A DNA stretch of 64,000 nt, from NCBI GenBank assembly GCA_963665615.2, contig CAXXQE010000001.1:201151-265150 (forward strand). The letters run 5' to 3'. A model generated the notes under the pieces. That model made no database searches. It saw only the letters and a program-made list of their open reading frames with translations, and was not told where the DNA came from. Source of the DNA: Syntrophales bacterium (GTDB taxonomy: Bacteria > Desulfobacterota > Syntrophia > Syntrophales > UBA4778). The position numbers and the translations under genes were made by a program. Position 1 is the stretch's first letter. Every line of letters starts with the position of its first letter. Shown piece by piece: positions 10,637 to 46,309 of the stretch.

Positions 10637-10754
10637 GAATTCTTTAGCGAGGGCGTTCCCCGCTGCTTGAGGCGGGATAAACGAGCGCATAAGGACAAAC
10701 CATCTACCTTGGGAATCGGAGATTCGCCGGAGCTTGCGCCGGTGAGTCTTCAAT
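10637..10754 (+). repeat. 118-bp dispersed repeat, copy A
   Basis: Alignable end to end with the copies at 30848, 37428(-), 41140, 42963 and 46199. Shared blocks: GAATTCTT.AGCGAG, a GC hairpin, TAAACGAGCG, GGGAATCGGAGATT, GCCGGAGCTTGCGCCGG and GAGTCTTCAAT. It ends 33 nt before the start codon at 10788. Confidence 0.85.
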
Positions 10755-10787
10755 ACAAATGATCTGTAACTTATGAGGAGGAACTAA

Positions 10788-12039
10788 ATGAGCGGATGGC
10801 TGTCGCCCCTACCTGTTAGAGATGCGTATGATGCAATAATGCGTAAACTCGATTACCCTAGTTCTGAGACGCTTCGGAGGATTCTGGAACTATCAATGAG
10901 CCTGGAGGAAGCAGAACTGCTGCTCGCGATGCCCGGAACGGTTTCATCGCTAGCTGAGAAGGTAAATCGCGGACAGGAGGCAGTGAAAAACCAGATTGAG
11001 AGAATGTTCTGGGTTGGTTTAATTATGGAACAAGCGAATCCGGATGGCACGATTACATACTCACCGCCGTCTCCTGTATGGTGCATCGAAACGGCTAATG
11101 ATCAGATGATGTGGGCCGTTGGAGGAAACTATGCGCCCAAGTCAGGAAAGACGACGGCTCAGGATTTGTGGAGTCGTTTGGATGATATAACATTAGAAAT
11201 ATCAGATCTCTGGAATAAGTTCTTCTATGAAGAATGGTATAGATGGCAACGTACAAATGAGCTGGTGCACCGTAATGTAGATATCCTCGGGGGGGCAGCA
11301 GGCCTGGCCCGATCATATGGGCTCATGCCTGCTGCTTTATCGCTGATAAAAAGCGAAGCGCTTGGCACTGAAATTCTTCCCGACTGGGATTTGCGGGAAA
11401 TCGCAAAAAAAGCTGAAAAGGGCATCTACTGTCGTGCGTGCACCTGCCGAACCAGGAATATGGGATGCGATGTTCCCCTCTGGTTATGCTGTGCCATTTG
11501 GGATGGCATGCCGGGCAGAGATGCTGGTGTTGAAATAAAAGCGGATAGGCGGGGGCAACTCCATAAATACTCCGGTGAAGAGTGGTTGGAAATCCTCATC
11601 CGTGGCGAAGAAGAACATATGATGGTCCATACAGGTGACTCATGGATGAGTGTCTGCAATTGTTGCCGGGATTGCTGCAACTGGCTTGAGCCCCTTAGAT
11701 TATATACCGCCGAGCCATGGGAGGGGGTTCACCCTTCACCCTATCGTGCGGTTGTCAATAGAGAGGTGTGCGAAGGCTGTACCCAGGACTGTTTCCCCCC
11801 GCTGCGCATTCAAGGTGATTGAAGGCGAAAAGGATCCAGCCACCGGTAAAGTGAAACCCCATATTGATCCCGACAAGTGTGTCGGGTGCGGTCAGTGTGT
11901 CGTGGGTTGCAAGGTTCAGGGTGCCATCAAAATGGAACTGGCGGAAAAGGCGGGAGCTCGCATTCCCCTGTTGGGTGGCAGGGCAAAAGTTCCGGCAAGT
12001 ATCATTGGTCCGAGACCAAAAATTCCGAGCCGGAGATAA
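10788..12039 (+). pseudogene. Winged-helix / poly-cysteine / di-ferredoxin protein, paralog 3, broken by a +1 frameshift
   Basis: ORFs 10788..11822 and 11650..12039 together are collinear with paralog 2. The frame changes at a C6 run (11795-11800), where paralog 2 has C5. Removing one C restores ..CFPRCAFKVIEG.. and a 416-aa protein. Confidence 0.85.
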
Positions 12040-12101
12040 TTATAGGAGTCAGCAGTGACGTGGACAGATTCACTATCGCTCAGGCGTCCTCGCATTGAAG
12101 G

Positions 12102-14063
12102 ATGAGTATGGAGAAAATAATGGATTTCACAAATTTATTTTCAAGTATCAAAGTCAAAAATATTGAACTCCGTAATCGTATCGTTATGCTTCCAATGAGT
12201 ACAAACTATTTCGACGAAGACGGAACCGTTGGAGATCGGTTTATCAACTTCTTTGTAGCCAGGGCTAGAGGTGGTGTCGGGCTCATTGATATTCCTTTTA
12301 GTCCAATAGATGATGGCGCTCATAATGAACCCGGGCTTTTTCACAGCCGCTTTATTCCCGGCATTCATAACCTGACTTCCCGTATTCACGACCATGGCGC
12401 CAAGGTAGCAGCACAATTGATTATCTCTTATAAGGCGATGCTTCATAATGGCATCGCAGAAGTCATTGGCCCTTCTGCGATTTTTAATAAGATGATGCGC
12501 TGTGTTCCGAGAGAATTGACGAAGCAGGAAATTCATTCAATTGTTAAGGCATACGGCGCAGCTGCAGCACGAGCCCGTGAGGGCGGATTCGATGCAGTTG
12601 ATGTTCTTGTCGGAGCTGGCTATCTGTTGAATCGCTTCCTTTCACCAATCAGTAACAATAGGACGGATGAATATGGTGGCAATCTTGAGAACAGAATGAG
12701 AATTATCCTGGAAGTGATCAAAAGTATCAAAATGGAAGCCGGCGATGATTTCCCCATATTTTGCCGACTCAATGTGGAAGAGAAAATGCCGGGAGGACAC
12801 ACCATTGAGGATTCGAAAGAGGTTTTGAGAGAACTGGAAAGAAATGGCATTGATATGTTCATTCTTTATACCGGTTGGCACGAATCCCCCATCCCTACGG
12901 TAGGACCATTTGTTGCAAAAGGTGCTTTTTCCGACCTCGCGGAGAAGATGAAAGAGACTGTTCAATTGCCGGTTGTTGCGTCGAATAGAATCAACGATCC
13001 ATTCATCGCAGAAAAATTACTGTCAGAAGAAAAGGCAGATCTGATTGGCATGGCACGTGCGCTATTGGCAGATCCGGAATTTGCAAATAAAGCTCGTGAA
13101 GGCAGGGTTGATGAGATTGTGCCGTGCATAGCCTGTGGTGAATGTTTGGGGCAACTCTTGCAGGCTGCCTATAAGACGGAGTCATTTCAATCAACGGCAG
13201 AGAATTCATTATGCAGTGTTAATCCAATAGCAGGAATGGAAGAACAGCATAGAGGAATTAATCAAAAAACAAAGAAAACGGTTTACGTTATTGGCAGCGG
13301 TCCAGCAGGCATGACGGCTGCAATGACCGCTGCGTCCAGAGGCCATCGTGTTGAATTATTCGAAATAAATAGCAGCCCCGGCGGCAGATTGTGCTCGGCG
13401 TCGATACCGCCAAGTAAAGGAGAAATACAAAGCCTCATTAAAAGCTTATATGCACGGGCAGTGAAATCAGGAGTATCTTTTCAATTCAATACGGAATTGA
13501 TGCCGCAAGATGTCAGGAAGGAGGATACTGACGTTTTAATTATCGCACTTGGCGCAGAGCCCTTTGTCCCTCCAATTAAGGGGATTAATAGACCGAATGT
13601 CTTTCTCGCGGAAGATGTATTAACGGGAAAAGATAGGGTGAGCGGACGTATCATCGTAATCGGCGGGGGACTGGTCGGCTGCGAGACTGCTGAATATCTT
13701 GTAGAAAATGGAATAGCTGATGTTACTGTCATAGAAATGTTAGGGCGTCTGGCCGATAATGTTTCATCTGCAAACCGACCATTTCTTCTCGAGAGATTAA
13801 GAAAAGCAGGACTGAAAATGTATACCAATATTACCGTTACTGAGATTACGGATACGGGCATAGTATATGTGAGCGAGACAGGTTCAGGAACGATGCCGGC
13901 TGAATGTGTTGTTCTTGCTGCAGGCTTTAAGCCAGATATTAAGAGGGTCGAATCATTCGAAATAGATGGACCATACAAGACCATCGCAATTGGTGACTGT
14001 GTAAAAGCGCGTACTATTAAGGATGCTATTGGAGAGGGATATTCAGCTGGAGAATCAATTTAG
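12102..14063 (+). CDS. Old-yellow-enzyme / 2,4-dienoyl-CoA reductase (FadH)-like FMN + [4Fe-4S] + FAD/NAD(P) oxidoreductase
   Basis: 653 aa. The N-terminus is an OYE-type TIM barrel (IELRNRIVMLPM..., ..NRTDEYGG..). The Cys cluster is CIACGECLG...C. The C-terminus has two Rossmann motifs (VYVIGSGPAGMTAA, IIVIGGGLVGCE). This architecture matches FadH/enoate reductases. Confidence 0.85.
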   Translation: MSMEKIMDFTNLFSSIKVKNIELRNRIVMLPMSTNYFDEDGTVGDRFINFFVARARGGVGLIDIPFSPIDDGAHNEPGLFHSRFIPGIHNLTSRIHDHGAKVAAQLIISYKAMLHNGIAEVIGPSAIFNKMMRCVPRELTKQEIHSIVKAYGAAAARAREGGFDAVDVLVGAGYLLNRFLSPISNNRTDEYGGNLENRMRIILEVIKSIKMEAGDDFPIFCRLNVEEKMPGGHTIEDSKEVLRELERNGIDMFILYTGWHESPIPTVGPFVAKGAFSDLAEKMKETVQLPVVASNRINDPFIAEKLLSEEKADLIGMARALLADPEFANKAREGRVDEIVPCIACGECLGQLLQAAYKTESFQSTAENSLCSVNPIAGMEEQHRGINQKTKKTVYVIGSGPAGMTAAMTAASRGHRVELFEINSSPGGRLCSASIPPSKGEIQSLIKSLYARAVKSGVSFQFNTELMPQDVRKEDTDVLIIALGAEPFVPPIKGINRPNVFLAEDVLTGKDRVSGRIIVIGGGLVGCETAEYLVENGIADVTVIEMLGRLADNVSSANRPFLLERLRKAGLKMYTNITVTEITDTGIVYVSETGSGTMPAECVVLAAGFKPDIKRVESFEIDGPYKTIAIGDCVKARTIKDAIGEGYSAGESI

Positions 14064-14248
14064 ATGAGCAACTGGATCCAGATTTCAGTATGAACCTCCA
14101 TCGTCTGCATATAACGGCATTTCGAAGGAAGTAGAATATCACGGAATACGCAACGCGAAAGTAAAAAATACTAAGCGTCACCATATATGCGTCGTCCCGA
14201 ATTGGAAAGGAAGCAGCCTAGGCTGCAATGCATCGGAAAGGATAAGAA

Positions 14249-15292
14249 ATGCAAGAAGAAAATATCACAACGCAAAATCATGACCTCTATGTTGAGCTGG
14301 CCGCCCGGGTGAAGAGCCCTGATTCGACGATTATTCCCAAATTGTTTCATATACTGGCGGATGAGACCGATGCGAAAATTCTCCTGGCGCTTCCCGGCAA
14401 TGTCTCTGATCTATCGAGCCAATTGGGCCTTGACCCTTCCGATGTTGAAGCCAGGCTCGAAGGTCTCTTTAAAAGGGGTGTTGTTTTTCGCAACAAAAAG
14501 AAGTCCCCGGTCGTGTATAAAATGGCCAAGGACGCCATGCACCTGCATGATTGCAGCATGCAATGGCGAGGAAGTGGCAAGGCGTTCAGAGAACTCTGGC
14601 GGCAGTGGGGTGAAGAAGAGTGGCCTGAGACCGCTAAATTGGGAAAAGGCAAGAGGCCCGTCACCAGGCTTCTTGCAGCCGACATCTGGATTGACGCCCC
14701 CAAGGATAAAATTTTACCGTTCGACAGTATTCGAGAGATCATCACGCAAGCCAGGAGTCTGGCTGTTATGCCCTGTGCCTGCCGAATCAAATATGGCGGC
14801 AAGTGCGGGCACCGCATGGAGGGATGCATCGTGATGAATGGTTCCGCCGATTACAATATCGAACGGGGGACAGCGAGGAAAATAGACGCGGCAGAGGCCA
14901 TGGACATTATTGAAAAATGTGAGGAGGACGGCCTGTTGCATCTTACGGGCGCCAATTCCCAGTCGGATCCCGGTCCGATCATCTGCAATTGCTGCCCCTG
15001 TTGTTGCATAGCACTTCCCTTGATTCTGCGGGATCAATACTGGGTTGATCCGTCGCGTTTCTGCGCGCAGATAGACCGGGAGACGTGTAAAGGCGGTGAT
15101 TGCAGGCTATGTTACGAGCGCTGCTATTTTAACGCTATTGAGACAGCAGAAGATGGCAAGGCGACGGTCATCAAAGAGAAGTGTACAGGCTGCGGATTGT
15201 GCAAGAGAAAATGCCCTGCAGATGCGATTACGTGGATCGAGGAACGTACCCCGGATTTCGTGCCGAAGGTCAACAGCGAAAAACTCTATTAA
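14249..15292 (+). CDS. Divergent member of the winged-helix / poly-cysteine / di-ferredoxin family, paralog 4
   Basis: 347 aa. Motifs: ETDAKILLALPGNVSDLSSQLG (HTH-like), CACRIKYGGKCGHRMEGC, CNCCPCCC, CKGGDCRLCYERC and CTGCGLCKRKCP. Its Cys spacing matches the N-terminal module of the 3863 fusion. Confidence 0.8.
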   Translation: MQEENITTQNHDLYVELAARVKSPDSTIIPKLFHILADETDAKILLALPGNVSDLSSQLGLDPSDVEARLEGLFKRGVVFRNKKKSPVVYKMAKDAMHLHDCSMQWRGSGKAFRELWRQWGEEEWPETAKLGKGKRPVTRLLAADIWIDAPKDKILPFDSIREIITQARSLAVMPCACRIKYGGKCGHRMEGCIVMNGSADYNIERGTARKIDAAEAMDIIEKCEEDGLLHLTGANSQSDPGPIICNCCPCCCIALPLILRDQYWVDPSRFCAQIDRETCKGGDCRLCYERCYFNAIETAEDGKATVIKEKCTGCGLCKRKCPADAITWIEERTPDFVPKVNSEKLY

Positions 15293-15374
15293 TGCGGTTG
15301 CGGAGATAACCACACCATAGAATGTCGGCGGGTTGAGATGTTGAAATATGAATAGGTAACTGAGGAGGAGAAAA

Positions 15375-16481
15375 ATGGAGATTACAGCGGCGGTAGTAAG
15401 AGGTCCGGGGAAAGAAGATCCTTTTCAGATTGAAAAAATTGAACTGGAGGATCCGAGAGATCACGAAGTGCTCGTGAAAATAGCTGGGGTTGGATTGTGT
15501 CATACAGACCTGTTCGTAAAAGAAGCAATGTCATCGGCAGGGATGTTGCCCTGGGTATTAGGTCATGAAGGTTCCGGAGTGGTGGAAAAAGTTGGGAGCG
15601 CCGTGACCAAAGTCGTTCCCGGAGACCATGTCGTCATGAGCTTCAGCTATTGCGGTCAATGCAAAAATTGCAAAACCGCGTTTCCTGGGTATTGCAAGGA
15701 CTTTTTTCCACAGAATGCGGCCGGTACGCGCATGGATGGCTCGTTCACCATGCACAAAGGTAATGAGAATGTTTACGCGCATTTTTTTGGTCAGTCCTCC
15801 TTTGCCAGTCATGCTATCGCAAATGAAAGAAATATCGTTAAAGTCGATAAGAATGTCCCTATTAACTCATTAGGGCCTCTGGGTTGCGGTATTCAGACTG
15901 GAGCGGGAGCCGTTATCAATTCCCTTAAGGCGCGACCCGGAACATCCATCGCCGTTTTTGGGGCAGGAGCAGTGGGTCTAAGCGCTATTCTTGGAGCGGT
16001 TGTCTGCGGTTGCACGAAGATCATGGCGGTTGACATTCTGCCTGAGCGCTTAAAATTGGCGCAAGAATTGGGTGCGACACATTTGATTAATGGTAAAACG
16101 GCAAACGTGGTCGATGAGATCAAGAAGATTACCGACAGTCTTGGAGCCGATTATTCCGTTGAGTGTACGGGCAATCCCAATGTGATCTGTCAGGCCATCG
16201 AGTCGGTGGGAGTATTAGGCACATGCGGTTTGGTGAGCTTGATTGCCGCTGGCTTGGACATAAAACTCGATTGGACTGTCATCACCGCTGGTCGTAACGT
16301 TCGTGGTATTATAGAGGGCGACTCCATGCCTGATGTCTTTATCCCTCACATGATAGAGCTATATAAGGCAGGGCGTTTCCCGTTCGATAAGCTGATTACA
16401 TATCGGCCCCTCTCCGAAATAAACAAAGCCGTTGAAGATACCCACACAGGAAAAGCCGTTAAGGTCATACTGCTACCATAG
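15375..16481 (+). CDS. Zn-dependent aryl-alcohol (benzyl-alcohol, XylB-like) dehydrogenase
   Basis: 368 aa. Motifs: GLCHTDL, GHEGSGVVEKVGSAV, FFGQSSFA, LGPLGCGIQTGAGAV, FGAGAVGLSA and GRFPFDKLIT. From memory, these align closely with Pseudomonas XylB. Confidence 0.85.
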   Translation: MEITAAVVRGPGKEDPFQIEKIELEDPRDHEVLVKIAGVGLCHTDLFVKEAMSSAGMLPWVLGHEGSGVVEKVGSAVTKVVPGDHVVMSFSYCGQCKNCKTAFPGYCKDFFPQNAAGTRMDGSFTMHKGNENVYAHFFGQSSFASHAIANERNIVKVDKNVPINSLGPLGCGIQTGAGAVINSLKARPGTSIAVFGAGAVGLSAILGAVVCGCTKIMAVDILPERLKLAQELGATHLINGKTANVVDEIKKITDSLGADYSVECTGNPNVICQAIESVGVLGTCGLVSLIAAGLDIKLDWTVITAGRNVRGIIEGDSMPDVFIPHMIELYKAGRFPFDKLITYRPLSEINKAVEDTHTGKAVKVILLP

Positions 16482-20183: not shown

Positions 20184-20341
20184 GTCACGCGTGACAAGTT
20201 ACAAGTGACGGGTAACGATTCTGGCATATTTCCTCTTGTCTAATCCCCTCGTTCTGGAAAAACCTGGAGCCGCGACTGCGCGGGGATGACATGAAACATC
20301 AGGCTATTAATACTTGTTACTTGTAACTCGTCACTTGTTAC
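20184..20341. repeat. Composite palindromic element bounded by inverted GTNACRR heptad arrays
   Basis: 20184-20218 reads GTCACGC GTGACAA GTTACAA GTGACGG GTAACGA. 20314-20341 is the inverse array TTGTTAC TTGTAAC TCGTCAC TTGTTAC. The core contains the imperfect inverted repeat ATCCCCTCG / CGCGGGGAT. Confidence 0.8.
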
Positions 20342-20361
20342 TGCGGTGTGAGCCGCCGCAA

Positions 20362-20837: not shown

Positions 20838-21031
20838 GTGACGAGTAACGAGTAACAAGTGACGAGAAAAATATGTTTTGGGGTCATTAGGGCTGTTCTG
20901 GGGGACTTGCCGGAGAAGGCAGTGAAACAATCTGAACAACAAGATTGCTTCGTCACTCCGTTCCTCGCAATGACCGGGATATGGGTTTTGGCAAGTCCCT
21001 TACCTGTCACCCGTTACTTGTCACTTGTTAC
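20838..21031. repeat. Composite palindromic element bounded by inverted GTNACRR heptad arrays
   Basis: 20838-20865 reads GTGACGA GTAACGA GTAACAA GTGACGA. 21004-21031 is the inverse array CTGTCAC CCGTTAC TTGTCAC TTGTTAC. There is an inner inverted repeat GGGACTTGCC (20896-20905) / GGCAAGTCCC (20990-20999). The core carries one arm of the CGCAATGAC element. Confidence 0.8.
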
Positions 21032-21823
21032 TTCTTCTTTGATCATCTTCGGGCTCTGTACCCCGAACCCTGAATTCTTTCCTGCCCCCGGCATGTAATC
21101 GGGCTTCACATGATACATCGCACGAAAGATATTGTCGCGTATCTTTTGATTGCCGCGCACCTCCAACTCGTTAAGCAGTTCTTTGATTTCGTTACGCTTG
21201 GAGGTCCGGCTGGTTGGGCAGCCGTTTGTCACAATGGGGAACTCCTGCTCCCGGGCGTACTTTTTGACGAGCTCTTCGCGGATATAAGCCAGAGGACGGA
21301 TGATGCTCATCTTGCCGCCGAAGATGACCTGGTTGGGCACCATGGTGCTGATCTCCCGGCCATAGAAGAGATTGATCAGCAGGGTCTCGATCAGGTCGTC
21401 GCGATGATGGGCCAGGACGATTTTGTTGCAGTTGTGTTCATCGGCGATCTCGAAGAGCCGTTTGCGTCTCAGCCGCGCACAGAGAAAACAGGGATTCTTC
21501 TTGTTGAAGTCGCTATGGGACAGGGGGCCGATATCGGTCCGGTCGATGATGTAGTTGTAGCCCTGTTCCTTCAAATAACTTTCCAGAATGACGCTTCCAC
21601 GTCCCTCGTCGAACCCCAGGTCGATATGTGCAGCCAGCAGACTGAAATCGTTCGGGACGTGCAGCATCGAGGTGTTGAGCAGGTCCAATAGGGCCGTGCT
21701 GTCGGCTCCGCCAGAGACGCCGACGAGGAGCCGGTCCTCTGCCTTGATCATGTTGTAATCCATCGCTGCCTTCTCCAACCATTTTTTCAGATGGAGAAAG
21801 AGCTTTGTTCTCTTGCGCACCAT
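21014..21823 (-). CDS. ttcA: PP-loop ATPase, tRNA 2-thiocytidine biosynthesis protein TtcA-like
   Basis: 269 aa. PP-loop VGVSGGADSTALL and Cys pairs CFLCARLRR and NGCPTSR. The last codons (..VTSDK stop) are encoded by the heptad repeat array. Confidence 0.75.
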   Translation of the reverse strand: MVRKRTKLFLHLKKWLEKAAMDYNMIKAEDRLLVGVSGGADSTALLDLLNTSMLHVPNDFSLLAAHIDLGFDEGRGSVILESYLKEQGYNYIIDRTDIGPLSHSDFNKKNPCFLCARLRRKRLFEIADEHNCNKIVLAHHRDDLIETLLINLFYGREISTMVPNQVIFGGKMSIIRPLAYIREELVKKYAREQEFPIVTNGCPTSRTSKRNEIKELLNELEVRGNQKIRDNIFRAMYHVKPDYMPGAGKNSGFGVQSPKMIKEEVTSDK

Positions 21824-21871
21824 TATTTTGTCCAGTGTCTCTTAATAGGGTGCTACCCCCCTTAAGTCATG

Positions 21872-21995
21872 CAGGCTGTTCAAAAAGGCTCAGAGACAAG
21901 GCGCGGAAGGACCGGGAAGCGGAGCGTATAAGTCAACACGTGAAACACCACGGCCCGGAACGCAACGCAGGATATGAGCCTTTTTGAACAGCCTG
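21872..21995. repeat. Hairpin element with perfect 21-bp terminal inverted repeats
   Basis: CAGGCTGTTCAAAAAGGCTCA (21872-21892) is the exact reverse complement of TGAGCCTTTTTGAACAGCCTG (21975-21995). The spacer is 82 bp. It lies in the divergent ttcA/eno intergenic region. Confidence 0.85.
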
Positions 21996-27185: not shown

Positions 27186-27213
27186 GTGACGGGTAACGAG
27201 TGACAAGTTACAA
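27186..27213 (+). repeat. GTNACRR heptad array (solo)
   Basis: GTGACGG GTAACGA GTGACAA GTTACAA, directly upstream of a terminator hairpin. Confidence 0.75.
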
Positions 27214-27215
27214 GT

Positions 27216-27247
27216 AAAAAAGGGGCTCCGAGAGGAGCCCCTTTTTT
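27216..27247. terminator. Bidirectional rho-independent terminator
   Basis: AAAAAA GGGGCTCC GAGA GGAGCCCC TTTTTT, between convergent genes. Confidence 0.85.
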
Positions 27248-29929: not shown

Positions 29930-30150
29930 AAGTTCAAAAGATAATGCCCCGTTCCTTGCTTTGGGAAGGGGATAGCAGCCAGCCGCTTATCGTTTTCAGT
30001 AAAGCGTGATTGCAAGGTTTAAGGTCGCCCGCCGCATGGACGATCTTCCAATAAGATTAAGTATAACAGATCAATCACTATATTTCATGACCAATTTCGA
30101 TATTGATACGCCATATTGATAGCTTTTTCAAGAGCGATACAAGGGATTGT

Positions 30151-30783
30151 ATGAAGATCACATCAGCCCAGTTTATCAAGAGCGCGACGGCGCTGGCCCA
30201 CTATCCGGCGGAGGAACTGCCAGAAGTTGCTTTTGCGGGGAAATCCAATGTGGGAAAATCTTCCCTGATTAACGGTCTACTCAATCGCCGGAAACTTGCG
30301 CAGACCAGTTCGACGCCGGGCCGGACCCGGTTGATTAATTTTTTTGCGGTAAATGATAAGCTCTCCTTTGTGGATCTTCCCGGATACGGTTACGCGCGCG
30401 TGCCGGAGGACATGAAGCGCCAGTGGGGGAATATGATCGAAACATACCTGCTGAATCGCACGACGCTCCGTTTGGTCATCGTGATTCTCGATGTTCGCAG
30501 AGATCTTTCGGGAGAAGATCTGGCCTTGTTGGAGTGGCTTCAATTTCACGGCATACCGCATTGTACGGTTCTAACCAAGATCGACAAGGTTTCGAAAAAC
30601 GATTTGGTGAAACGAAAAAGAAATATCCGAAAACGCCTGGGGTTGGATGCGTCTGTGCCGGTTCTCGCCTTTTCGGCATTAACCGGGGAAGGGAAGGATG
30701 AGATCTGGCAGACCATTCTACAGCGGGCCATCCCCAGACAGACGGGCAAGAAAGAGACGGCCCCTCTTCCCATTGTGCCTTAG
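30151..30783 (+). CDS. engB: Ribosome-biogenesis GTPase EngB/YsxC/YihA
   Basis: MKITSAQFIKSA.., G1 motif GKSNVGKSSLIN, G3 motif DLPGYG and G4 motif TKIDK. Confidence 0.9.
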   Translation: MKITSAQFIKSATALAHYPAEELPEVAFAGKSNVGKSSLINGLLNRRKLAQTSSTPGRTRLINFFAVNDKLSFVDLPGYGYARVPEDMKRQWGNMIETYLLNRTTLRLVIVILDVRRDLSGEDLALLEWLQFHGIPHCTVLTKIDKVSKNDLVKRKRNIRKRLGLDASVPVLAFSALTGEGKDEIWQTILQRAIPRQTGKKETAPLPIVP

Positions 30784-30847: not shown

Positions 30848-30965
30848 GAATCCGGCAGCGAGCGCATTCCCCGCTACCTGCTGCGGGCTAAGCGAGCGAA
30901 TCATGTCTAAACATCTTCCTTAAGAAGCTGAAACTTGCCGGAGCTTGAGCCAGAGAGTTTTCGAT
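30848..30965 (+). repeat. 118-bp dispersed repeat, copy E (more diverged)
   Basis: Blocks: GAATCCGGCAGCGAGCGCA, hairpin CCCGC-N8-GCGGG, TAAGCGAGCG and ..GCCGGAGCTTGAGCC... It lies between the convergent engB and 30965 genes. Confidence 0.75.
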
Positions 30966-31426
30966 TATGGCTGAAGCCCATTAAATGTGCGGCTCATCAG
31001 ATCGCTTCGCAACGATTCGGGACGAACCCAGCCGACCGTCCAATCATACAAATCACCTTCCATGGTTCCTGGAAGGATCGGTTGGTAAGCGGAATCGTAA
31101 GGCGGAATACGGTTACCGAATTGATCGACGGCGTAGATGACCTTGAAGACCTTCTTGGAAAACTTTATTTCATAGAGGAGCCGGTGGGTGATGTTGTCCG
31201 GCGTATCCAGTTTCGTCCAGACCTGAATGACATCCTTGTCCTGTCGTTCAAAGGTGAAGAGCCCCAGATCGTATACTTTCATGTTAGGGAATTGGATGCT
31301 CTCTCTGTCATAATAGACTTGGGTCGTATGTTTCGGTAGCGGGATCCAGAATTCTGCGTCCGAAATGCCCATCCATGTCAGGCAAACCAGACAGAGCAAC
31401 GCTGGGCCGATCAGAATATTTTTCAT
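30965..31426 (-). CDS. Hypothetical secreted protein
   Basis: 153 aa with a signal-like N-terminus MKNILIGPALLCLVCLTWMGISDA. No recognisable motif. Confidence 0.55.
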   Translation of the reverse strand: MKNILIGPALLCLVCLTWMGISDAEFWIPLPKHTTQVYYDRESIQFPNMKVYDLGLFTFERQDKDVIQVWTKLDTPDNITHRLLYEIKFSKKVFKVIYAVDQFGNRIPPYDSAYQPILPGTMEGDLYDWTVGWVRPESLRSDLMSRTFNGLQP

Positions 31427-36974: not shown

Positions 36975-37397
36975 TCAAGATTCGGGCTGGATTGGAATTT
37001 TTACCCGCCGCTCTTTCTTTTCCGCCTGGGCGTGTTTCAATTCTAAGACTTTTTCTTTCGCCCGCTTGGAACGCTGACGTTTCTGCCGCCTGAGCTTCTC
37101 GATTCGCATCTGCTCCGCGCTCAACTTCCCCAGTTTGATCGCCTCAATTTTTTCCACCAGGATTTGCCGCGCGAGGAACCGGTTGAGCGCCTGGGAACGG
37201 GCCTTCTGCGCCTTGACTTGGATGCCGGTCGGCAGGTGGACCAGCTGCACGCAGGTGGAGGTCTTGTTGACCTTCTGACCGCCGGGCCCGGACGAGCGGA
37301 CAAAGGTTTCTTCAAGATCGCGTTCGTAGATGTCGAGCGCTTCCATTTTGGCCTTTAGGGCCTGCTCCTTTTCCGGTGATACAGTGAAGATGCTCAT
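36975..37397 (-). CDS. RF-1-domain peptidyl-tRNA hydrolase, ArfB-like ribosome rescue factor
   Basis: 140 aa. GGQ motif (SSGPGGQKVNKTSTCV) plus a long basic C-terminal tail (KLRRQKRQRSKRAKEK..). Confidence 0.75.
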   Translation of the reverse strand: MSIFTVSPEKEQALKAKMEALDIYERDLEETFVRSSGPGGQKVNKTSTCVQLVHLPTGIQVKAQKARSQALNRFLARQILVEKIEAIKLGKLSAEQMRIEKLRRQKRQRSKRAKEKVLELKHAQAEKKERRVKIPIQPES

Positions 37398-37427: not shown

Positions 37428-37545
37428 ATTGAAGACTCACCGGAACAATCTCCAGAGACTCTCCGATTCCCAGGGAAGATGTTTAGTCCTGATTCGCTCG
37501 CTTACCCCGCGGCAAGCCACGGGCAATGCGCTCGCTGAAGAATTC
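37428..37545 (-). repeat. 118-bp dispersed repeat, copy B (inverted)
   Basis: Its reverse complement aligns end to end with the copies at 41140 and 42963. It lies 30 nt upstream of the minus-strand start codon at 37397, so its orientation relative to the downstream gene matches copies A, C and D. Confidence 0.85.
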
Positions 37546-38679: not shown

Positions 38680-38683
38680 CTTT

Positions 38684-39424: not shown

Positions 39425-40482
39425 TATTCTTTCGCTGATCCTGTTTTAAGCTGCTGCAAGATAATCCTGGAGAACTCCGCCGGCGTGGGAATGACCCCGC
39501 CGGGTCTGCCGTAGAAATCGACCTTGGCCCGGTTGCCGATGGCCAGTCGGACGTCTTCGAGCATCTGTCCGGTGCTCATTTCGAAAACGATAAATTTGGA
39601 AACGGTTTCGGCGAATTTCTGCAGGACGGCCGCCGGGAAAGGCCAGAGGGTGATCGGCCTGATAAGTCCCACCCGGATCCCCGTCTCCCTGAGGCGTTTG
39701 ATAGCACCCTTGGCAATACGCGCGGTGGTGCCGTACGCCACTACCAGAAGCTCCGCATCGTCGGCCATGAAAGTATCCCAGCGCACTTCCTGTTTTTCAA
39801 TCACACCATATTTACGGTAGAGCTTCCAGTTATGCTCTTCTTCGTGAAGGGGGTCGAGAATGAGGCCTCTGACAAAGCGGCTTTTGCCTTCTCCACACCC
39901 ATCGAGAACATGCTGCTCAGGATAGTTTCGAGGACTCGGTTTTTTGAAAATAACCGGTTCCATCATCTGGCCCATCATGCCGTCGGCAAGGATCATGACC
40001 GGGGTTCTATAGGTGTCAGCCAGATCGAAGGCGTCCATGGTGAGGTCGGCCAGTTCCTGAACGGAGGCCGGCGCCAGTACGATCACCTTGTAGTCGCCGT
40101 GGCCGCCGCCCTTGGTGGCCTGGAAATAGTCGCCCTGAGATGGAGAGATGTTGCCGAGGCCCGGGCTGCCGCGCATGATATTGACGATGACCGAGGGGAG
40201 TTCATCCGCCGCCAGCGCGGAGATCCCTTCCTGCTTCAGGGAGATGCCCGGACTGGACGAGGACGTCATGGCGCGGGCCCCCGCAACGCTGGCCCCCATG
40301 ACCATGTTGATGGAAGCGATTTCGCTTTCGCCCTGGATGAAAACACCGCCATCCACTGCGCGCATGTGCTCGGCCATGTATTCGGTGATTTCGTTCTGAG
40401 GGGTGATCGGATAGCCCGCATAGAACCGGCAGCCTGCTCTGATGGCCGCTTCTGCGATGACTTTGTTGCCTTGCATGAGCAT
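39424..40482 (-). CDS. 2-oxoacid:ferredoxin oxidoreductase alpha subunit
   Basis: The sequence is MLMQGNKVIAEAAIRAGCRFYAGYPITPQNEI... ORF 39424..40506 has alternative TTG/GTG starts that would overlap the delta gene. Confidence 0.85.
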   Translation of the reverse strand: MLMQGNKVIAEAAIRAGCRFYAGYPITPQNEITEYMAEHMRAVDGGVFIQGESEIASINMVMGASVAGARAMTSSSSPGISLKQEGISALAADELPSVIVNIMRGSPGLGNISPSQGDYFQATKGGGHGDYKVIVLAPASVQELADLTMDAFDLADTYRTPVMILADGMMGQMMEPVIFKKPSPRNYPEQHVLDGCGEGKSRFVRGLILDPLHEEEHNWKLYRKYGVIEKQEVRWDTFMADDAELLVVAYGTTARIAKGAIKRLRETGIRVGLIRPITLWPFPAAVLQKFAETVSKFIVFEMSTGQMLEDVRLAIGNRAKVDFYGRPGGVIPTPAEFSRIILQQLKTGSAKE

Positions 40483-40486
40483 CTTT

Positions 40487-40708
40487 TCAGTCACGGTACA
40501 CCTCAATGGCGACTTCCGGACAGATCAAGGCGCAAAGCGCGCACCCGGTGCACTCCCCCTTATCGTTGAAACAGGCAGGATGATAGCCTTTGGAATTGTA
40601 TTCTTTGGAGCTTTCGATCGAGGCTTTGGGGCAGACATGAAGACACAGTCCGCAGTCTTTACAAATTTCCCCGTTTATTTTGATATAACCCTTCAACGGC
40701 AACTCCAT
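40487..40708 (-). CDS. 2-oxoacid:ferredoxin oxidoreductase delta subunit (2x[4Fe-4S] ferredoxin)
   Basis: 73 aa. Cluster motifs: CKDCGLCLHVCP and CTGCALCALICP. The gene order delta-alpha-beta-gamma resembles Kor-type enzymes. Confidence 0.85.
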   Translation of the reverse strand: MELPLKGYIKINGEICKDCGLCLHVCPKASIESSKEYNSKGYHPACFNDKGECTGCALCALICPEVAIEVYRD

Positions 40709-41139
40709 GATTAGCGTTACTGGAGCTCTTATACAAATAGGATGGGAATGTCAATGAGAGATTATTCTGTGAGAGGGGATATTTTTGGTTAACCTATCCA
40801 TATGTTCGGGCAAGCGTTCGCCTTTATAACGGTCTCATAATAATGTTCTCACTAGGGGCAACATCGCGGCCTCAGAAAGTCTGATCCGACTTTCACTTCT
40901 GATGGCCCCGTAAAACGCCTACCATAAAACAAGAGGATTGCTGGACGGGTCTCGAACGCGAATTAAAGATTTTTCCGGCCCGACAGGATTGGTCGTCCGG
41001 CCCGGAACATGATGGAAAAAGATTTCTGAGCGGCAGAGAGCCATCCAGCAATCCTCATTCCCTTTGACTCATTATGGAACCAGCCTTTCGTTGCTGCACA
41101 GAACGACAAATGTGAAAACACTTATGAGACCGTTAATAT

Positions 41140-41257
41140 GAATTCTTGAGTGAGCGTATTCCCCGCGGTTTGCTGCGGGGTAAACGAGCGAGTCAAAACT
41201 GAACATCTTCCTTGGGAATCGGAGATTTGCCGGAGTTCGCTCCGGTGAGTCTTCAAT
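41140..41257 (+). repeat. 118-bp dispersed repeat, copy C
   Basis: Blocks: GAATTCTTGAGTGAGCGTA, hairpin CCCCGC-N8-GCGGGG, TAAACGAGCG, GGGAATCGGAGATT, hairpin CCGGAG-TTCG-CTCCGG and GAGTCTTCAAT. It ends 20 nt before ATG 41278. Confidence 0.9.
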
Positions 41258-41277
41258 TGACAAGGAGATTGTCCTGA

Positions 41278-42369
41278 ATGAGAATAAATTCAAACATTCC
41301 TGAACGGCATACCGTAATGATCGACGCACAATTGGTCAACGATCCCTTTGGCGATCCTGCCGTCTATGTGTCGTTTCGGCACAGGAGAGGGACTATTCTC
41401 TTTGATCTTGGAGAGATCGAGGTACTCTCTCCCCGTCAGATCCTGAAGCTCGATCATATTTTCGTTTCGCACACCCACATGGATCACTTCATTGGTTTTG
41501 ACCGTTTGTTGCGGATCTGCCTGGGACGCGACAAACACCTGCGTCTGTATGGTCCGTCGGGGTTCATTCGGAGCCTGGAAAACAAGATCAACGCCTATAG
41601 CTGGAACCTGGTCGAGAATTACACCAGCGATTTTGTGATTCATGCAACCGAGATCGATGACCAGGGGAACGCTGAAATCCGCCGATATCGTTGCCAGAAG
41701 GCGTTTCGGCGAGAAGGCGATGTGCCGGTGCCGGTGAGCCATGGCGTGATGGATACGTTGGGACTTTACGCGGATGATTTTCTTTCAGTGAGTTGCGTTT
41801 TTCTGGACCACATGATTCCCTGTCTGGCATTCCGGTTGGAGGAACGGTGTCATGTGAACATCATGAGCAACAAGTTGGAAGAGATGGGGCTTCCGGTTGG
41901 ACCGTGGCTGACGGAACTGAAAGAAAGGATTTTGTGCGGGGATCCCGGTGAGACGCTGGTACCCGTCTGGTGGCGCGAGGCCGGTCAGAGAGTGGATGCC
42001 GGCACCGTGCCATTGAAGCGGCTCATGGAGCGGGCCGTCCGAATTACGCGCGGCGAGACGCTCGCCTATGTTACGGATGCGATCTATCATCCGGACAATA
42101 TCGATCGCATCCTCGCTATCGCCCGGGACGTGGACCACCTCTTCATCGAGGGTAGTTTTTTTGAGGCCGAATCTCAAAGGGCCAAAGAGAAGTATCATCT
42201 GACGGCGGCTCAGGCGGGCAGCCTGGCGCGGCAGGCAGGCGTCAAGTGCATGACACTGTTTCACTTTTCTCCGAAACATCACGGCCAAGGGGAAAAATTG
42301 ATACAGGAGGCCCTGGCCGCGTTCAAAGGTCACGGCGGTGTTAGCCGCTTTAGTCGATCCTCTCTATAG
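41278..42369 (+). CDS. Metallo-beta-lactamase-fold hydrolase (RNase Z-like)
   Basis: 363 aa with the HxHxDH motif (VSHTHMDHFIG). An alternative start is at 41317. Confidence 0.75.
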   Translation: MRINSNIPERHTVMIDAQLVNDPFGDPAVYVSFRHRRGTILFDLGEIEVLSPRQILKLDHIFVSHTHMDHFIGFDRLLRICLGRDKHLRLYGPSGFIRSLENKINAYSWNLVENYTSDFVIHATEIDDQGNAEIRRYRCQKAFRREGDVPVPVSHGVMDTLGLYADDFLSVSCVFLDHMIPCLAFRLEERCHVNIMSNKLEEMGLPVGPWLTELKERILCGDPGETLVPVWWREAGQRVDAGTVPLKRLMERAVRITRGETLAYVTDAIYHPDNIDRILAIARDVDHLFIEGSFFEAESQRAKEKYHLTAAQAGSLARQAGVKCMTLFHFSPKHHGQGEKLIQEALAAFKGHGGVSRFSRSSL

Positions 42370-42853
42370 CGAACCCTTCCAGTTCGATGGCGACCGACCG
42401 CTGCAACAGGTCGATCGAGACCACGAAGGTGTCCTTTTTAAGATCCATTTTGAGCACCGTGCCTTCGATGCCTCTGAAGGGGCCGTCCTTGATGCGGGCT
42501 TTTTCCCCGACCTGGGGATAGGCAATCTGTTGCAATTCCACTTTGGATTCCACAAGGCGGCGAATCGCCTCGATCTGGGCATCGGGTACGGCGATGGGCT
42601 CGCCTCCGACGGGTTTACCCAGGATTCGTACAACGCCCGGCGTTGTCAGCACGCTCAGCCGTGTCTGACTGTCGGGTTTGAATTCGACAAAGAGATAGCC
42701 GGAAAAGACGGGGACCAAAATCCTCTTCTTCCGGTCCTTTCGTTTGCTCCATACTTCCATCTTCGGGAGGAACGCATTGAAAGACTTCTGAAGCAGCCCC
42801 TTGTATACGATATCTTCATGGCGGCTTTTCGTGTGAACTGCAAACCAGGGCAT
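42350..42853 (-). CDS. NusG-family paralog (RfaH/UpxY/LoaP-like specialised antiterminator)
   Basis: Start at MPWFAVHTKSRHE (NGN domain). The C-terminal KOW is GEKARIKDGPFRGIEGTV. 167 aa. Its 3' end overlaps the convergent MBL gene by 20 nt. Confidence 0.75.
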   Translation of the reverse strand: MPWFAVHTKSRHEDIVYKGLLQKSFNAFLPKMEVWSKRKDRKKRILVPVFSGYLFVEFKPDSQTRLSVLTTPGVVRILGKPVGGEPIAVPDAQIEAIRRLVESKVELQQIAYPQVGEKARIKDGPFRGIEGTVLKMDLKKDTFVVSIDLLQRSVAIELEGFAIERID

Positions 42854-42962
42854 GATACACCTTTCCAGAAAAAAGTTACCTGCTTGATACTTGCAATGCG
42901 GTCTTCTTGCAACATTTTTCTGCGCCGGGGCCGAAGCTGGTATATAATGCCGGCCAATGCCT

Positions 42963-43080
42963 GAATTCTTCAGCGAGCGCATGGCTCGCGGTGTGCCGCG
43001 GGGTAAGCGAGCGCCTCAGGACGAAACATTTTCTTTGGGAATCGGAGATTCCCCGGAGCTTGCGCCGGGAACTATTCAAT
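42963..43080 (+). repeat. 118-bp dispersed repeat, copy D
   Basis: Blocks: GAATTCTTCAGCGAGCGCA, GC hairpin, TAAGCGAGCG, GGGAATCGGAGATT and CCGGAGCTTGCGCCGG. It ends 15 nt before ATG 43096. Confidence 0.9.
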
Positions 43081-43095
43081 GAACGGAAGGGACGT

Positions 43096-44694
43096 ATGAT
43101 ACGGATTCACAATGTCCGGTTGGCGATCGGTGAGGCTGAGGCAGATCTGCCTGGACTTGTTGGCAGTCTTTTGGGGGTCAGCGTCGATGCGATTGAATCT
43201 TTTCGGGTGGTTCGAAGGTCGCTCGACGCCCGCCGGGAACGTCCGCCGGAGTTCAATTATATCGTCGAAATGTCATTTCATGACGAGCCGAGAGTCCTCA
43301 GCCAGGCGCCCCCATCCGTCAAGTACGCCGTGGTCGAGACAACTCAGCCGTCCGCGTCTTTCGCGAACCGCGCCACGAACAATCTTGCCAGGCGGCCGGT
43401 CGTCGTGGGTTGCGGACCCGCCGGACTCTTCGCGGCGCTGACCCTTGCGACGCAAGGCGTTGCGCCGATCCTGCTGGAACGAGGCCGCATCGTCGAAGAT
43501 CGTGTGAGAGATATTCGCACCTTCTGGGAAGCGGGTGTCCTCGATCCGGAGAGCAACGTGCAATTCGGCGAGGGCGGCGCCGGGACGTTTTCGGACGGCA
43601 AATTGACCACACGGACCAAGAGTGACAAGGTCGATCGGATCAAACGCACACTGGTCGAATTGGGCGCACCGGCCGAGATTCTCGTGGAGGCAAAACCGCA
43701 TATCGGTTCAGACCGGCTTCGTCCGGTTCTGATCCGACTACGCGAAAGACTGCTGGCCTTGGGATGTGAGGTGGCCTTTCAATCCAGAGTGACGGACATT
43801 CTTACAGACAAGGGATGCATCGTCGGTGTTGTGGTCAATGATCGGGACGAGATCAGGACGGATCATCTCATTTGGGCCGCAGGTCAGAGCGATGCGGCCA
43901 ATTACGAGTTGCTGGTCCGAAGGGGCATTGCTCTGGTCGCAAAGGCCTTTGCCATGGGGGTTCGGATCGAGCATCCTCAGGCGTTGATCAACCGCATGCA
44001 GTATGGCAAGTGGTGGCAGGAGGCATCGCTTCCTCCCGCGGAATACAGCCTGACGGCAATGGTAGAGGAAATGGATCGTTCGGTTTATACCTTCTGCATG
44101 TGTCCGGGCGGCTATGTGATCGGGAGCAGTTCAGAAGCGGGCGGCATTGTCACCAACGGGATGAGCGACGGGCAGCGGGATGGGGCGTATGCCAACAGCG
44201 CTGTGGTCGTGACCGTTCGTCCGGAAGACTTCCCTGTTGCGCATTCCCTGGCTGGCCTTGAATTTCGGAGAGCATGGGAGGCGCGCGCCTTTGCCGCAGC
44301 AGGCGGCGGGTATCTCGCCCCAGCCCAGAACCTCGTGGATTTCCTGGCCGCGAAGGTGTCGCGCGCGTTGCGGCCCACGACGTTTCGTCCCGGCGTGACG
44401 CCGGCGCGGCTGGATGAAGTCCTGCCGGACTTTGTCGCCCGCGCGCTCCGTTGCGGATTTGATGGGTTTGAGAAGAAGATGCCGGGTTTTATCACTAGCG
44501 ACGCAGTCCTGATCGGCATCGAAACGCGCACGTCTTCACCGGTCAGAATTCTTCGGGAGGAAAACGGGTGCAGCACGAGTGTTGCGGGATTTTATCCCTG
44601 CGGCGAAGGCAGCGGCTATGCGGGGGGAATTATCAGTTCGGCAGTGGACGGGATCAAGGCGGCGGAAAGCATCCTGAAAAGTTCGGGGTCGTGA
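43096..44694 (+). CDS. FAD-dependent protein of the COG2509 type (uncharacterised FAD-dependent dehydrogenase)
   Basis: Start at MIRIHNVRLA after GGAAGGGA. Motifs: VVVGCGPAGLFAAL and GEGGAGTFSDGKL. The upstream part of ORF 42907.. runs through the repeat and is not coding. Confidence 0.75.
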   Translation: MIRIHNVRLAIGEAEADLPGLVGSLLGVSVDAIESFRVVRRSLDARRERPPEFNYIVEMSFHDEPRVLSQAPPSVKYAVVETTQPSASFANRATNNLARRPVVVGCGPAGLFAALTLATQGVAPILLERGRIVEDRVRDIRTFWEAGVLDPESNVQFGEGGAGTFSDGKLTTRTKSDKVDRIKRTLVELGAPAEILVEAKPHIGSDRLRPVLIRLRERLLALGCEVAFQSRVTDILTDKGCIVGVVVNDRDEIRTDHLIWAAGQSDAANYELLVRRGIALVAKAFAMGVRIEHPQALINRMQYGKWWQEASLPPAEYSLTAMVEEMDRSVYTFCMCPGGYVIGSSSEAGGIVTNGMSDGQRDGAYANSAVVVTVRPEDFPVAHSLAGLEFRRAWEARAFAAAGGGYLAPAQNLVDFLAAKVSRALRPTTFRPGVTPARLDEVLPDFVARALRCGFDGFEKKMPGFITSDAVLIGIETRTSSPVRILREENGCSTSVAGFYPCGEGSGYAGGIISSAVDGIKAAESILKSSGS

Positions 44695-44702
44695 GCTGAA
44701 GA

Positions 44703-44869
44703 GTGACAAGTTACAACTGATGAACTCGTAAAAGGTCGAGTAACTCGTCATTGCGAGGAACGTAGTGACGAAGCAATCTCATAATGTCAGCTGGTTAGAT
44801 TGCTTCGCTTCGCTCGCAATGACCCGGAAACATACTTTTTACGAGACCATCACAAGTGACGGGTGACAA
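44703..44869. repeat. Composite element: heptads flanking a ~120-bp imperfect palindrome (CGCAATGAC element)
   Basis: Heptads GTGACAA GTTACAA (44703-44716) and GTGACGG GTGACAA (44856-44869). Palindrome arms: CTCGTAAAAG / CTTTTTACGAG, GTCATTGCGAG / CTCGCAATGAC and GAAGCAATCT / AGATTGCTTC (44725-44845). It lies between convergent genes. Confidence 0.8.
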
Positions 44870-44944
44870 GCCCAAAGGAGGGTTGAAAACAGAATAAGCT
44901 GGCCCCCACAGAAGTGAAGAAATTCTTTCTCGTCACTTCCGTCT

Positions 44945-46078
44945 TCACTGGCCTTGCCGATGAAGACGTGCGTCCACCACGATATCGTCGCCGCTGCGGA
45001 AGACCTTGCGGCAGTCGAGCCGGATGGCATCTTTGATCTGCGAGATGCCGAGATCCCCCACGCTGTCGATTCCCGCGCCGATGAGCCGGGGGGCGGTGAT
45101 GGCGAGCAGCCGGTCTGCCAAACTTTGTCTGAGGAAGTGGGTTGCTGTTTCTGCGCCTCCTTCGACGAGCAGAGAGGAGATCCCTTTTCCCCCAAGCATT
45201 TTCAAGAGTTCCGGCAGGTCCAACTTTCCCCACGGATCCATGTTCAGAAACAGCAGGCCAATTCCTAGCTTTTCAAGCTGGGCTGCCTTGCGTCCAGTTT
45301 TTGGCCTGTATCTCGTCACGATCAGGGTCCGTGCCTTGTTCTGCTCTTGGAGAATCATGCTGTCCAGCGGGATGCGAAGATTCGGGTCCAGGGCGATTCT
45401 GACCGGATTTCTTCCCCGCACCCGTCGCACCGTCAATTCCGGATCATCTGCCAGAACGGTTCCGATGCCCACCAGGATGGCATCGTGAAGCGCCCGCTCC
45501 CGGTGAGCCAGTTTGAGCGACGGCTCCGAACTGATCCACTTGGAATCTCCGCTTGCGGTGGCCGTCCGTCCGTCGAGGCTTTGGGCGAACTTGATCGTGA
45601 CGAAGGGCGTTGCGGTTTGCATGAACTTGAAGAACTTTTCGTTCAACGCCCGGCAGGCCGTCTCCAGAACGCCGATGCGTGTGCGGATCCCCGCCGCTTT
45701 CAGTATGGCGATGCTCCGCCCCGCGACTAGCGGATTGGGGTCCAGGGTACCAATGATAACCGCTGCCGGTTTGGCTGCCAGGATGCTGTCGATGCACGGT
45801 GGCGTCTTTCCGTGATGAGTGCAGGGTTCCAAGGTCACGTAGATGGAGGAACCTTTAATAGGCACCGTTGTGCTTCGGATGGCGTTGACTTCCGCATGAG
45901 GACCGCCGAACTTATGGTGATAACCCTCACCGATGATAGTGCCATTTTTAACGATAACGGCCCCGACCATAGGGTTGGGGCTGGTCCAGAGCGCTCCCCG
46001 CCGGGCCAGCATCAGGGCGCGACGCATGTAAAATTCATCGATGCTGTTCTGATTCGCTGTTGAGGGTGGCATCGCCAT
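44945..46078 (-). CDS. ribD: Bifunctional riboflavin biosynthesis deaminase/reductase RibD
   Basis: 377 aa. Deaminase motifs HAEVNAI and LEPCTHHGKTPPC. The C-terminus is a RibD reductase domain. Confidence 0.9.
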   Translation of the reverse strand: MAMPPSTANQNSIDEFYMRRALMLARRGALWTSPNPMVGAVIVKNGTIIGEGYHHKFGGPHAEVNAIRSTTVPIKGSSIYVTLEPCTHHGKTPPCIDSILAAKPAAVIIGTLDPNPLVAGRSIAILKAAGIRTRIGVLETACRALNEKFFKFMQTATPFVTIKFAQSLDGRTATASGDSKWISSEPSLKLAHRERALHDAILVGIGTVLADDPELTVRRVRGRNPVRIALDPNLRIPLDSMILQEQNKARTLIVTRYRPKTGRKAAQLEKLGIGLLFLNMDPWGKLDLPELLKMLGGKGISSLLVEGGAETATHFLRQSLADRLLAITAPRLIGAGIDSVGDLGISQIKDAIRLDCRKVFRSGDDIVVDARLHRQGQ

Positions 46079-46198
46079 GCTCCGAAAATAAAAAAGTTTG
46101 CAGCCTGAACCGGTCAGAGTCCATGACTACATGAAACCCCGTTCGTTTTCAATATGTTTTGTGTCTTTCCCTTTGGGCGATGAGTGGGGGAACCCCCT

Positions 46199-46309
46199 GA
46201 ATCCGGTAGCGCTCGCATTTCCCGCGGCCTGCTGCGGAGTAAGTGAGTGAATCATGTTTAAACATCAGGGATCGGTGACTTGCCGGGGCTTGCTCTTCCG
46301 AGTCTTCAA
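46199..46309 (+). repeat. 118-bp-family dispersed repeat, copy F (diverged, ~111 bp)
   Basis: Blocks: GAATCCGGTAGCGCTCGCA, hairpin CCGC-N8-GCGG, TAAGTGAGTG and ..GAGTCTTCAA. It lies ~285 bp upstream of the first pilin gene. Confidence 0.7.

Follow-up and report, generated by a model that had tools for sequence, protein, structure and literature searches.

The PATEs (palindrome-associated transposable elements), first catalogued in Haloquadratum, are transposase-less derivatives of IS200/IS605-type elements that are described as having no inverted terminal repeats, palindromes near their termini, no target duplication, and a length that leaves no space for a transposase (PMC3119063). Cleavage of IS608 takes place 19 nt 5' of the left palindrome and, on the right side, at TCAA, which lies 10 nt 3' of the right palindrome (PMC3201880); the top strand alone is active, and insertion occurs into the lagging-strand template (PMC3201880, PMC5027513). 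Here we analyze a repeat of ∼118 bp that is present in six copies in a 64-kb stretch of DNA from a Syntrophales bacterium (contig CAXXQE010000001.1, positions 201,151–265,150; hereafter, the window). The explanation that we favor, with a probability of roughly 0.6, is that this repeat is a lineage-restricted, non-autonomous mobile element with palindromic ends (PATE- or REP-like), not a classical MITE (a miniature transposable element with inverted repeats), and that its mover was likely an enzyme of the HUH/Y1 type.

The six copies that an earlier note on this DNA had listed, with their positions and strands, were recovered by alignment, by a hidden Markov model (HMM), and by a covariance model (copies A–F in order along the window, Table 1). 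An HMM built from the six copies found them in the window with E values of 7.5e-37 to 2e-28 (nhmmer); the remaining matches with E <0.01 (0.0055 and 0.007) coincide with copies D and A on the opposite strand and are due to the internal hairpins. When the covariance model was run over the whole window with filters off (cmsearch), the six copies scored 99–136 bits, and there was no seventh copy in the 64 kb, as the other matches with E <0.05 all overlap the six. Five copies are exactly 118 bp, as first reported, and the sixth (copy F, 111–112 bp) has a 6–7-nt internal deletion. Five of the six lie inside 15.5 kb. Pairwise identity is 78–83% among copies A, C, D, and E, 71–75% for copy B, and 63–72% for copy F. 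The element starts with GAATTCTTCAGCG and ends with GAGTCTTCAAT, and the order of its shared blocks (GAATTCTTCAGCGAGCGCA, hairpin 1, TAAGCGAGCG, GGGAATCGGAGAYT, hairpin 2, GAGTCTTCAAT) is the one originally proposed; the hairpin letters given with it were inconsistent (CCGGAG-TTCG-CTCCGG, for example, belongs to the copy at 41140). Copies B and F have the 5' variant GAATCCGG in common, and the other copies have GAATTCTT.

The sites of these copies were compared with those in related contigs, namely L119, L125, and L126 (syntenic, from one ENA sample), plus L124, L128–L134, and L135. Site C is covered by all of these contigs, sites D, E, and F by L119 and L126, and site B by L125 and L126; the closest relatives have 77–86% protein identity. 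Both L126 and L119 are empty at sites C, D, and E, and site C is likewise empty in L124, L125, L128–L130, and L135. Neither nhmmer nor cmsearch found the element at sites C, D, E, or F in these relatives. At site E, a clean insertion would fit the alignment of the empty site, whose flanks are too diverged for exact boundaries. Site F of L126 contains a sequence starting with TGAAGCCGGTATCG that both programs missed and that aligns globally to the element with a z-score of 2.6. By its sequence, this may be a decayed copy, which would fit copies B and F being the oldest ones.

Two additional copies were found outside the window. At the position of copy B, L126 contains an 81-nt variant (673–753, 21.5 bits by cmsearch) in which the first ∼33 nt and the last ∼14 nt are the same as those of the element, and the interior is a different, single hairpin. 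Metagenome contig L122 contains a further full-length copy (125–126 nt, E 1e-22, 110 bits), which lies between the lepB terminator and pyrR in inverted orientation, so that 21 nt separate its 5' end from the start of pyrR. This contig was found by a strict metagenome scan with a 20-base pattern, in which it was the sole real copy among 4 matched loci. The eight copies referred to below are the six in the window, the L122 copy, and the 81-nt variant, seven of them full-length. With sizes of 81–125 bp, all are too small to encode a protein.

Based on the empty orthologous sites, the variant that kept the ends and exchanged the interior, and the further copy with unrelated surroundings, we conclude that the repeat is a mobile, non-autonomous element. 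On these sequence comparisons, it is a lineage-restricted insertion and not a conserved leader. Of the possibilities raised in the earlier note, that of a MITE- or REP-like dispersed element is thus supported by four sites that are empty or without a recognizable copy in relatives and by the existence of the same-ends variant.

RNAalifold predicts two stem-loops on the forward strand of the element. Stem-loop 1 is a GC hairpin lengthened by pairing of the two AGCGAGCG blocks, and stem-loop 2 is a 13-bp hairpin formed by GGAGAYTYGCCGG, a loop, and CCGGTGAGTCTTC. The consensus folding energy is −32.4 kcal/mol for the forward strand and −13.8 kcal/mol for the reverse strand; among the seven full-length copies, the forward strand is better by 5–16 kcal/mol in six, and the two strands are equal in copy B. 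The forward strand has stability z-scores down to −4.0 among the copies of the window, and the L122 copy has one of −4.65. Cells in the alignment are paired in 89.7% of cases with the predicted partners, compared with 33–49% when the partners are slid by 1–3 columns. G-U pairs are present in 12 columns and C-A mismatches in 5. Changes on both sides of a pair occur in 5 of the 25 pairs; across the seven sequences, this number was reached in 11 of 500 shuffles and the covariation score in 18 of 500, a weak covariation for seven related sequences. The stem conservation pointed out previously is largely due to C/U changes on one side, which give G-U pairs.

The core of stem-loop 1 begins at nt 22, which places its foot 21 nt from the 5' end. 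The core of stem-loop 2 extends to nt 105, and 7 nt then separate it from TCAA (TGAGTCT-TCAA-T); the 3' end of the element is ...TCTTCAAT, and TCAA is present in six of the eight copies. When the first 28 nt were aligned to the reverse complement of the last 28 nt, the match was no better than that of shuffled sequences in 7 of the 8 copies. In addition, the target-site duplications that had been put forward as a check were not seen, as there are no consistent direct repeats of 3–10 nt within ±4 nt of the boundaries. The base at −1 is T in all eight copies and the base at −2 is a pyrimidine in seven of them; the flank is otherwise variable.

Each of the four features by which PATEs are described is found in the 118-bp element. 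It also resembles them in being a short repeat with many dispersed copies, some of them beside other mobile elements. The distance from the left junction to the left hairpin (∼19–21 nt) and the position of TCAA within ∼10 nt of the right hairpin are similar to those in IS608. Because of this agreement with PATEs and the IS608-like geometry of the ends, mobilization in trans by an HUH-type enzyme appears to be the likeliest route. The element has no coding capacity and would be moved by a transposase supplied in trans; the conservation of the termini (∼33 nt on the 5' side and ∼14 nt on the 3' side) in the 81-nt variant is expected if such a transposase recognizes the ends. We infer that the mover, as with IS200/IS605 and REP elements, would be an HUH/Y1-type transposase that acts strand-specifically on single-stranded DNA and is encoded elsewhere in the genome. 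The element would land in permissive intergenic spacers, several of them between an existing promoter and a ribosome-binding site, and there it would be co-transcribed as most of the 5' untranslated region (UTR) of unrelated genes. Any effects on mRNA stability or translation would be a by-product of its stable hairpins and not the reason for its existence.

Several observations weigh against this explanation. No Y1 or HUH transposase and no full-length parent was seen among the window proteins scanned (∼0–47 kb), just eight copies are at hand, and the copies differ by 17–37%, so that the activity may be ancient. No conserved target tetranucleotide is evident past the T at −1, unless the edge TGAA(T) is itself the target. 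The GC skew is positive over the entire window, which makes the G-rich + strand both the leading-sequence strand and the lagging-strand template. In favor of the explanation, the structured strand is on the + strand in five of the six window copies; this bias is not significant (p 0.11) and is confounded with gene direction, and copy C follows its gene and not the replication strand. The G-U/G-T asymmetry is equally expected under selection at the RNA level. The element differs from PATEs in its bacterial (Syntrophales-like) host, in having no cognate IS200/IS605 element among the same scanned proteins, in having no clear 4–5-nt target motif past the invariant T (or TGAAT), and in having no sequence similarity to any described family.

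The element shares with REP/BIME repeats, and with their RAYT (Y1) system, an intergenic location and GC-rich, strand-specific hairpins without inverted repeats or duplications; REP/BIME repeats are also often co-transcribed and can affect mRNA stability. In contrast, REPs are single palindromes of 20–40 nt with a conserved 5' tetranucleotide that occur in inverted pairs (BIME/REPIN), whereas this element is 118 nt long, its two hairpins differ from each other and have the same orientation, and its center is conserved and unpaired; the 118-nt unit is neither a 20–40-nt palindrome nor arranged in inverted pairs. The BOX elements of pneumococcus and the ERIC/IRU elements of enterobacteria are intergenic repeats of ∼100–130 bp that lie near the starts or ends of genes, are often transcribed, and fold into stable RNA. 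BOX is modular, with conserved end modules and a variable middle, as the 81-nt variant suggests for the 118-bp element; its A and C modules are partly complementary, and ERIC is one long imperfect palindrome with inverted ends. To our knowledge, neither BOX nor ERIC is related in sequence to the element described here.

We found no description of this repeat family in the literature. It would be a previously undescribed family, in an uncultured Syntrophales-like lineage, of a kind of element that is already well known, and it opens no long-standing question. Catalogues of small palindrome-ended repeats are poor outside model bacteria and haloarchaea. A blastn search of plasmids with the element gave no match, and pattern scans of viral contigs gave one chance match in a phage coding region and nothing more. 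A pattern used on genome contigs (CGAGCGN{15,35}GGGAATCGGAGA) was too loose, with at least 118 chance matches, and no real copy was among the matches listed for it. If the copy number were high genome-wide, this lineage would be one with active or recently active single-strand transposition, and it would provide a natural test of how insertions of stable hairpins in 5' UTRs act on expression.

Table 1. Copies of the 118-bp element and adjoining features, in window coordinates
Feature	Coordinates	Strand	Description
Copy A	10637–10754	+	118 bp, 123.8 bits; 33 nt from ATG 10788
Copy B	30848–30965	+	118 bp, 'CCGG' subtype; between convergent genes
Copy C	37428–37545	−	118 bp, 136.1 bits; 30 nt from the arfB-like start (37397, −)
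Copy D	41140–41257	+	118 bp; stem-loop 1 core at 41161–41180, stem-loop 2 at 41221–41254
Copy E	42963–43080	+	118 bp; 15 nt from ATG 43096 of the gene for a FAD-dependent protein
Copy F	46199–46309/46310	+	111–112 bp, internal deletion; most diverged copy
Extended −10-like site TGGTATATAAT	42938–42948	+	14 nt 5' of copy E; putative promoter
TTTACA-N16-TATATA	46320–46350	+	3' of copy F, conserved in L126; putative promoter
ISL3-family transposase, C-terminal remnant	10409–10609	+	PF01610 positions 184–238 of 240, E 5.6e-8
∼309-bp element, unrelated	40827–41135		14-bp perfect terminal inverted repeats TAACGGTCTCATAA / TTATGAGACCGTTA

It had been reported that four copies end 15–33 nt before the start codon of a gene in the same orientation, and this holds for three of them. 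The ATG downstream of copy A has a GGAGG ribosome-binding site, the arfB-like start next to copy C is backed by identical N termini (MSIF) in L124 and L126, and the start downstream of copy E was confirmed. Copy C lies between two co-directional genes, 146 nt past the stop of an ACT-domain gene, and copy E lies between divergent genes, the other one being NusG-like (start at ∼42853, −). The fourth distance is doubtful, as copy D lies 20 nt from ATG 41278 or 59 nt from ATG 41317, and five homologues of the MBL-fold protein encoded there begin at the residue that matches the latter. The other two copies are in different settings. Copy B, which has no start codon downstream, lies 64 nt past the stop of an engB-like GTPase gene (30103–30783, +), and ends with a base that is also part of the stop codon of a minus-strand gene (30965–31426, 153 aa) that is conserved in L126. 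Copy F is flanked by ribD (start at 46078, −) and a promoter-like site that belongs to a pilin-like operon, and the next start codon is ∼285 nt away.

The database entries for the genes next to copies C and D differ from their homologues. The arfB-like gene (36975–37397, −) is entered as 123 aa, and homologues support 140 aa; the MBL-fold gene (41278–42369, +) is entered as 363 aa, and homologues start 13 codons later. Judged against these homologues, the two start codons look mis-set. Repeats of this kind mislead gene callers, with the two adjoining starts called here unlike their homologues as a case in point, and small palindrome-ended repeats also break metagenome assemblies.

The closeness of the copies to start codons was tested under a model in which each insertion is placed uniformly within its intergenic gap. 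The Fisher p value is 0.28 with conservative gap definitions and 0.03 with liberal ones. The proposed preference for the space just before ribosome-binding sites is thus indistinguishable from random placement in short gaps (n = 6–7). Five copies directly precede a start codon, and four of these have the sense orientation (p 0.19). The fixed orientation that had been suggested is firm for three copies and doubtful for a fourth, and the L122 copy is inverted relative to pyrR.

At site E, the window and L126 align up to a shared extended −10 site and then again from the start codon, with the element in between. This −10 site, TGGTATATAAT in the window, is conserved as TGGTATAGT in L126, which is without the element, so the putative promoter is older than the insertion, and most of the 5' UTR consists of copy E. 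By its position 5' of the promoter-like site at 46320, copy F is upstream of a putative promoter and not within its leader. Copies A, C, D, and E are very likely included in transcribed 5' UTRs, because there is no room for a promoter 3' of them and, in the case of copy E, because a conserved −10 site lies 5' of it. The element may therefore have an effect on these four mRNAs.

Such transcripts could also be read as a structured cis-regulatory RNA leader (of the riboswitch, thermometer, or protein-binding type) that controls translation of the downstream gene, with the repeat being kept for this function. We regard this explanation as unlikely. It would account for the far better folding of the forward strand with its many G-U pairs, for copies A, C, and E lying in sense orientation 15–33 nt before validated starts, and for the position of copy E 3' of a conserved −10 site. 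The single-stranded center has a CU-rich sequence (CUUCCUU, anti-Shine-Dalgarno-like), two GGA motifs come after it, and the center of copy D is predicted to pair with the AAGGAG before ATG 41278. However, such a pairing with the ribosome-binding site is predicted for copy D alone, and none of the relatives examined has the element upstream of the orthologues. The genes that follow the copies have unrelated functions (a hypothetical Fe-S-like protein, an arfB-like protein, an MBL-fold protein, and a FAD-dependent protein), copy B is between convergent genes, copy F is upstream of a putative promoter, and the L122 copy is antisense to its gene. The unpaired regions are conserved as much as the stems, there is little covariation (5 pairs), and a search over copies D and E gave no Rfam match even at E ≤10; the earlier note had not recognized the repeat as an Rfam family, and the sole Rfam match in the whole window is tmRNA. 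The absence from orthologous leaders, the unrelated downstream genes, and the lack of an Rfam match argue against the conserved cis-regulatory RNA that the earlier note had considered.

We hold it to be equally improbable that the repeat is a classical MITE, that is, an internally deleted insertion sequence of the DDE type that moved by cut and paste, with an ISL3-family element near copy A as its possible parent. A remnant of an ISL3 transposase does adjoin copy A, with its stop codon 27 nt 5' of the copy. A variable interior between conserved termini is typical of MITEs, and copy A has terminal complementarity of 4–5 bp ((T)TGAA...TTCA(A)). The element also resembles classical MITEs (Correia/NEMIS, RUP) in being a short, non-autonomous repeat near genes, and these sometimes alter expression. 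They differ from it in their terminal inverted repeats and target-site duplications; here, inverted repeats do not exceed those of shuffled sequence in 7 of 8 copies, and there are no 8-bp or other consistent duplications. The element thus fails both tests that define a classical MITE. The ends of ISL3 elements begin with GG, and those of the 118-bp element do not, which counts against an ISL3 parent. When the reconstructed ISL3 remnant was used as a query, no homologue was found, so there were no ends to compare. The element was also considered as an ISL3 end and rejected, as it has no inverted repeats or duplications.

In a further explanation, the element is an RNA module, mobile and structured, that derives from the ends of a transposon. 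By inserting in sense orientation between promoters and ribosome-binding sites, it would place unrelated genes under one post-transcriptional regulator, with the bias in orientation and position being selected and not accidental. This module would be comparable to the right-end RNA of IS200/IS605 elements, and the regulator could be a protein that binds GGA or CU motifs or a TnpB-like, RNA-guided factor. We give this proposal a low probability.

There is even less reason to view the repeat as a mobile promoter, in which an outward-facing promoter in the element drives the gene directly 3' of it. The 15–33 nt that remain at copies A, C, and E are too little for a promoter, so transcription must start inside or upstream of the element. 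However, inspection by eye and a consensus scan found no σ70 or σ54 motif and no site for integration host factor inside the element; the sole promoter match, in copy D, has a −10 that overlaps the start codon. No TGnTATAAT-type or GG-N10-GC motif is conserved inside it, although such −10 sites adjoin copies E and F, and the ancestral −10 at site E is upstream of the element. The previous suggestion that the repeat carries a promoter is therefore not supported, as the putative promoters lie 5' (copy E) or 3' (copy F) of it. A family of small-RNA genes, each copy an independent transcription unit, is the least credible of the explanations, as the stable forward-strand structure (z-scores to −4.0 in the window and −4.65 in L122) is accompanied by no promoter, by no terminator T-run after stem-loop 2 save by chance in copy F, by copies that lie directly against coding starts or stops, and by absence from relatives.

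Copies A and D each adjoin another mobile-element remnant, and mobile elements tend to target one another (PMC3119063). Upstream of the ISL3 remnant (10409–10609, together with 9216–10145) are more frame-shifted pieces, and these follow an AMP-binding gene that ends at 309 aa, so that an ISL3-type insertion, now decayed, appears to have truncated the gene. The ∼309-bp element at 40827–41135 ends 4 nt 5' of copy D and has no counterpart at that site in L126. It is present once in the window, it has an internal inverted repeat of 13–14 bp (GAGGATTGCTGGA / TCCAGCAATCCTC), and it is probably a true MITE.

Genes that flank several of the copies have features of their own. The gene downstream of copy A (10788–12039) is the third of three paralogues (with 6574–7827 and 7846–9093) that encode ∼415-aa proteins with a C-terminal 4Fe-4S motif and have 62–78% DNA identity; the third encodes 344 aa, as an apparent frameshift near its 3' end cuts the 4Fe-4S motif. 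The engB-like gene of L126 (42–700) is split into fragments, of which only a 61-aa piece was called. This is probably caused by frameshift errors in the long-read metagenome, or the gene is a pseudogene. The first gene past copy F (start at 46596, MRSDRLGFTLIELM) stops after 60 codons and resumes in another frame (46735–47058), which suggests a frameshift or an assembly error. This gene opens one of two paralogous clusters of type IV pilin/pseudopilin-like genes (N_methyl, GspH) at 46596–51788 and 53850–58027.

Other small repeats were found in the window. A 33-nt repeat (AGATTGCTTCGTCACTCCGTTCCTCGCAATGAC) is present at 20942–20974 and 44747–44779 in opposite orientations with 97% identity, is intergenic, and represents another small dispersed family. 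A third small family is a 35-nt inverted pair (TGCAGGCTGTTCAAAAAGGCTCAGAGACAAGGCGC) at 21870–21904 and 48747–48781, with 94% identity, which lies in or at the edge of intergenic DNA. Heptad-like runs (GTNACNN, e.g. TACTTGTTACTTGTAACTCGTCACTTGTTACT) are present at 20184–20206, 20311–20342, 20838–20860, 21001–21046, 27193–27220, and 44696–44718, and these sit just past the ends of genes, around smpB/tmRNA and after two other genes.

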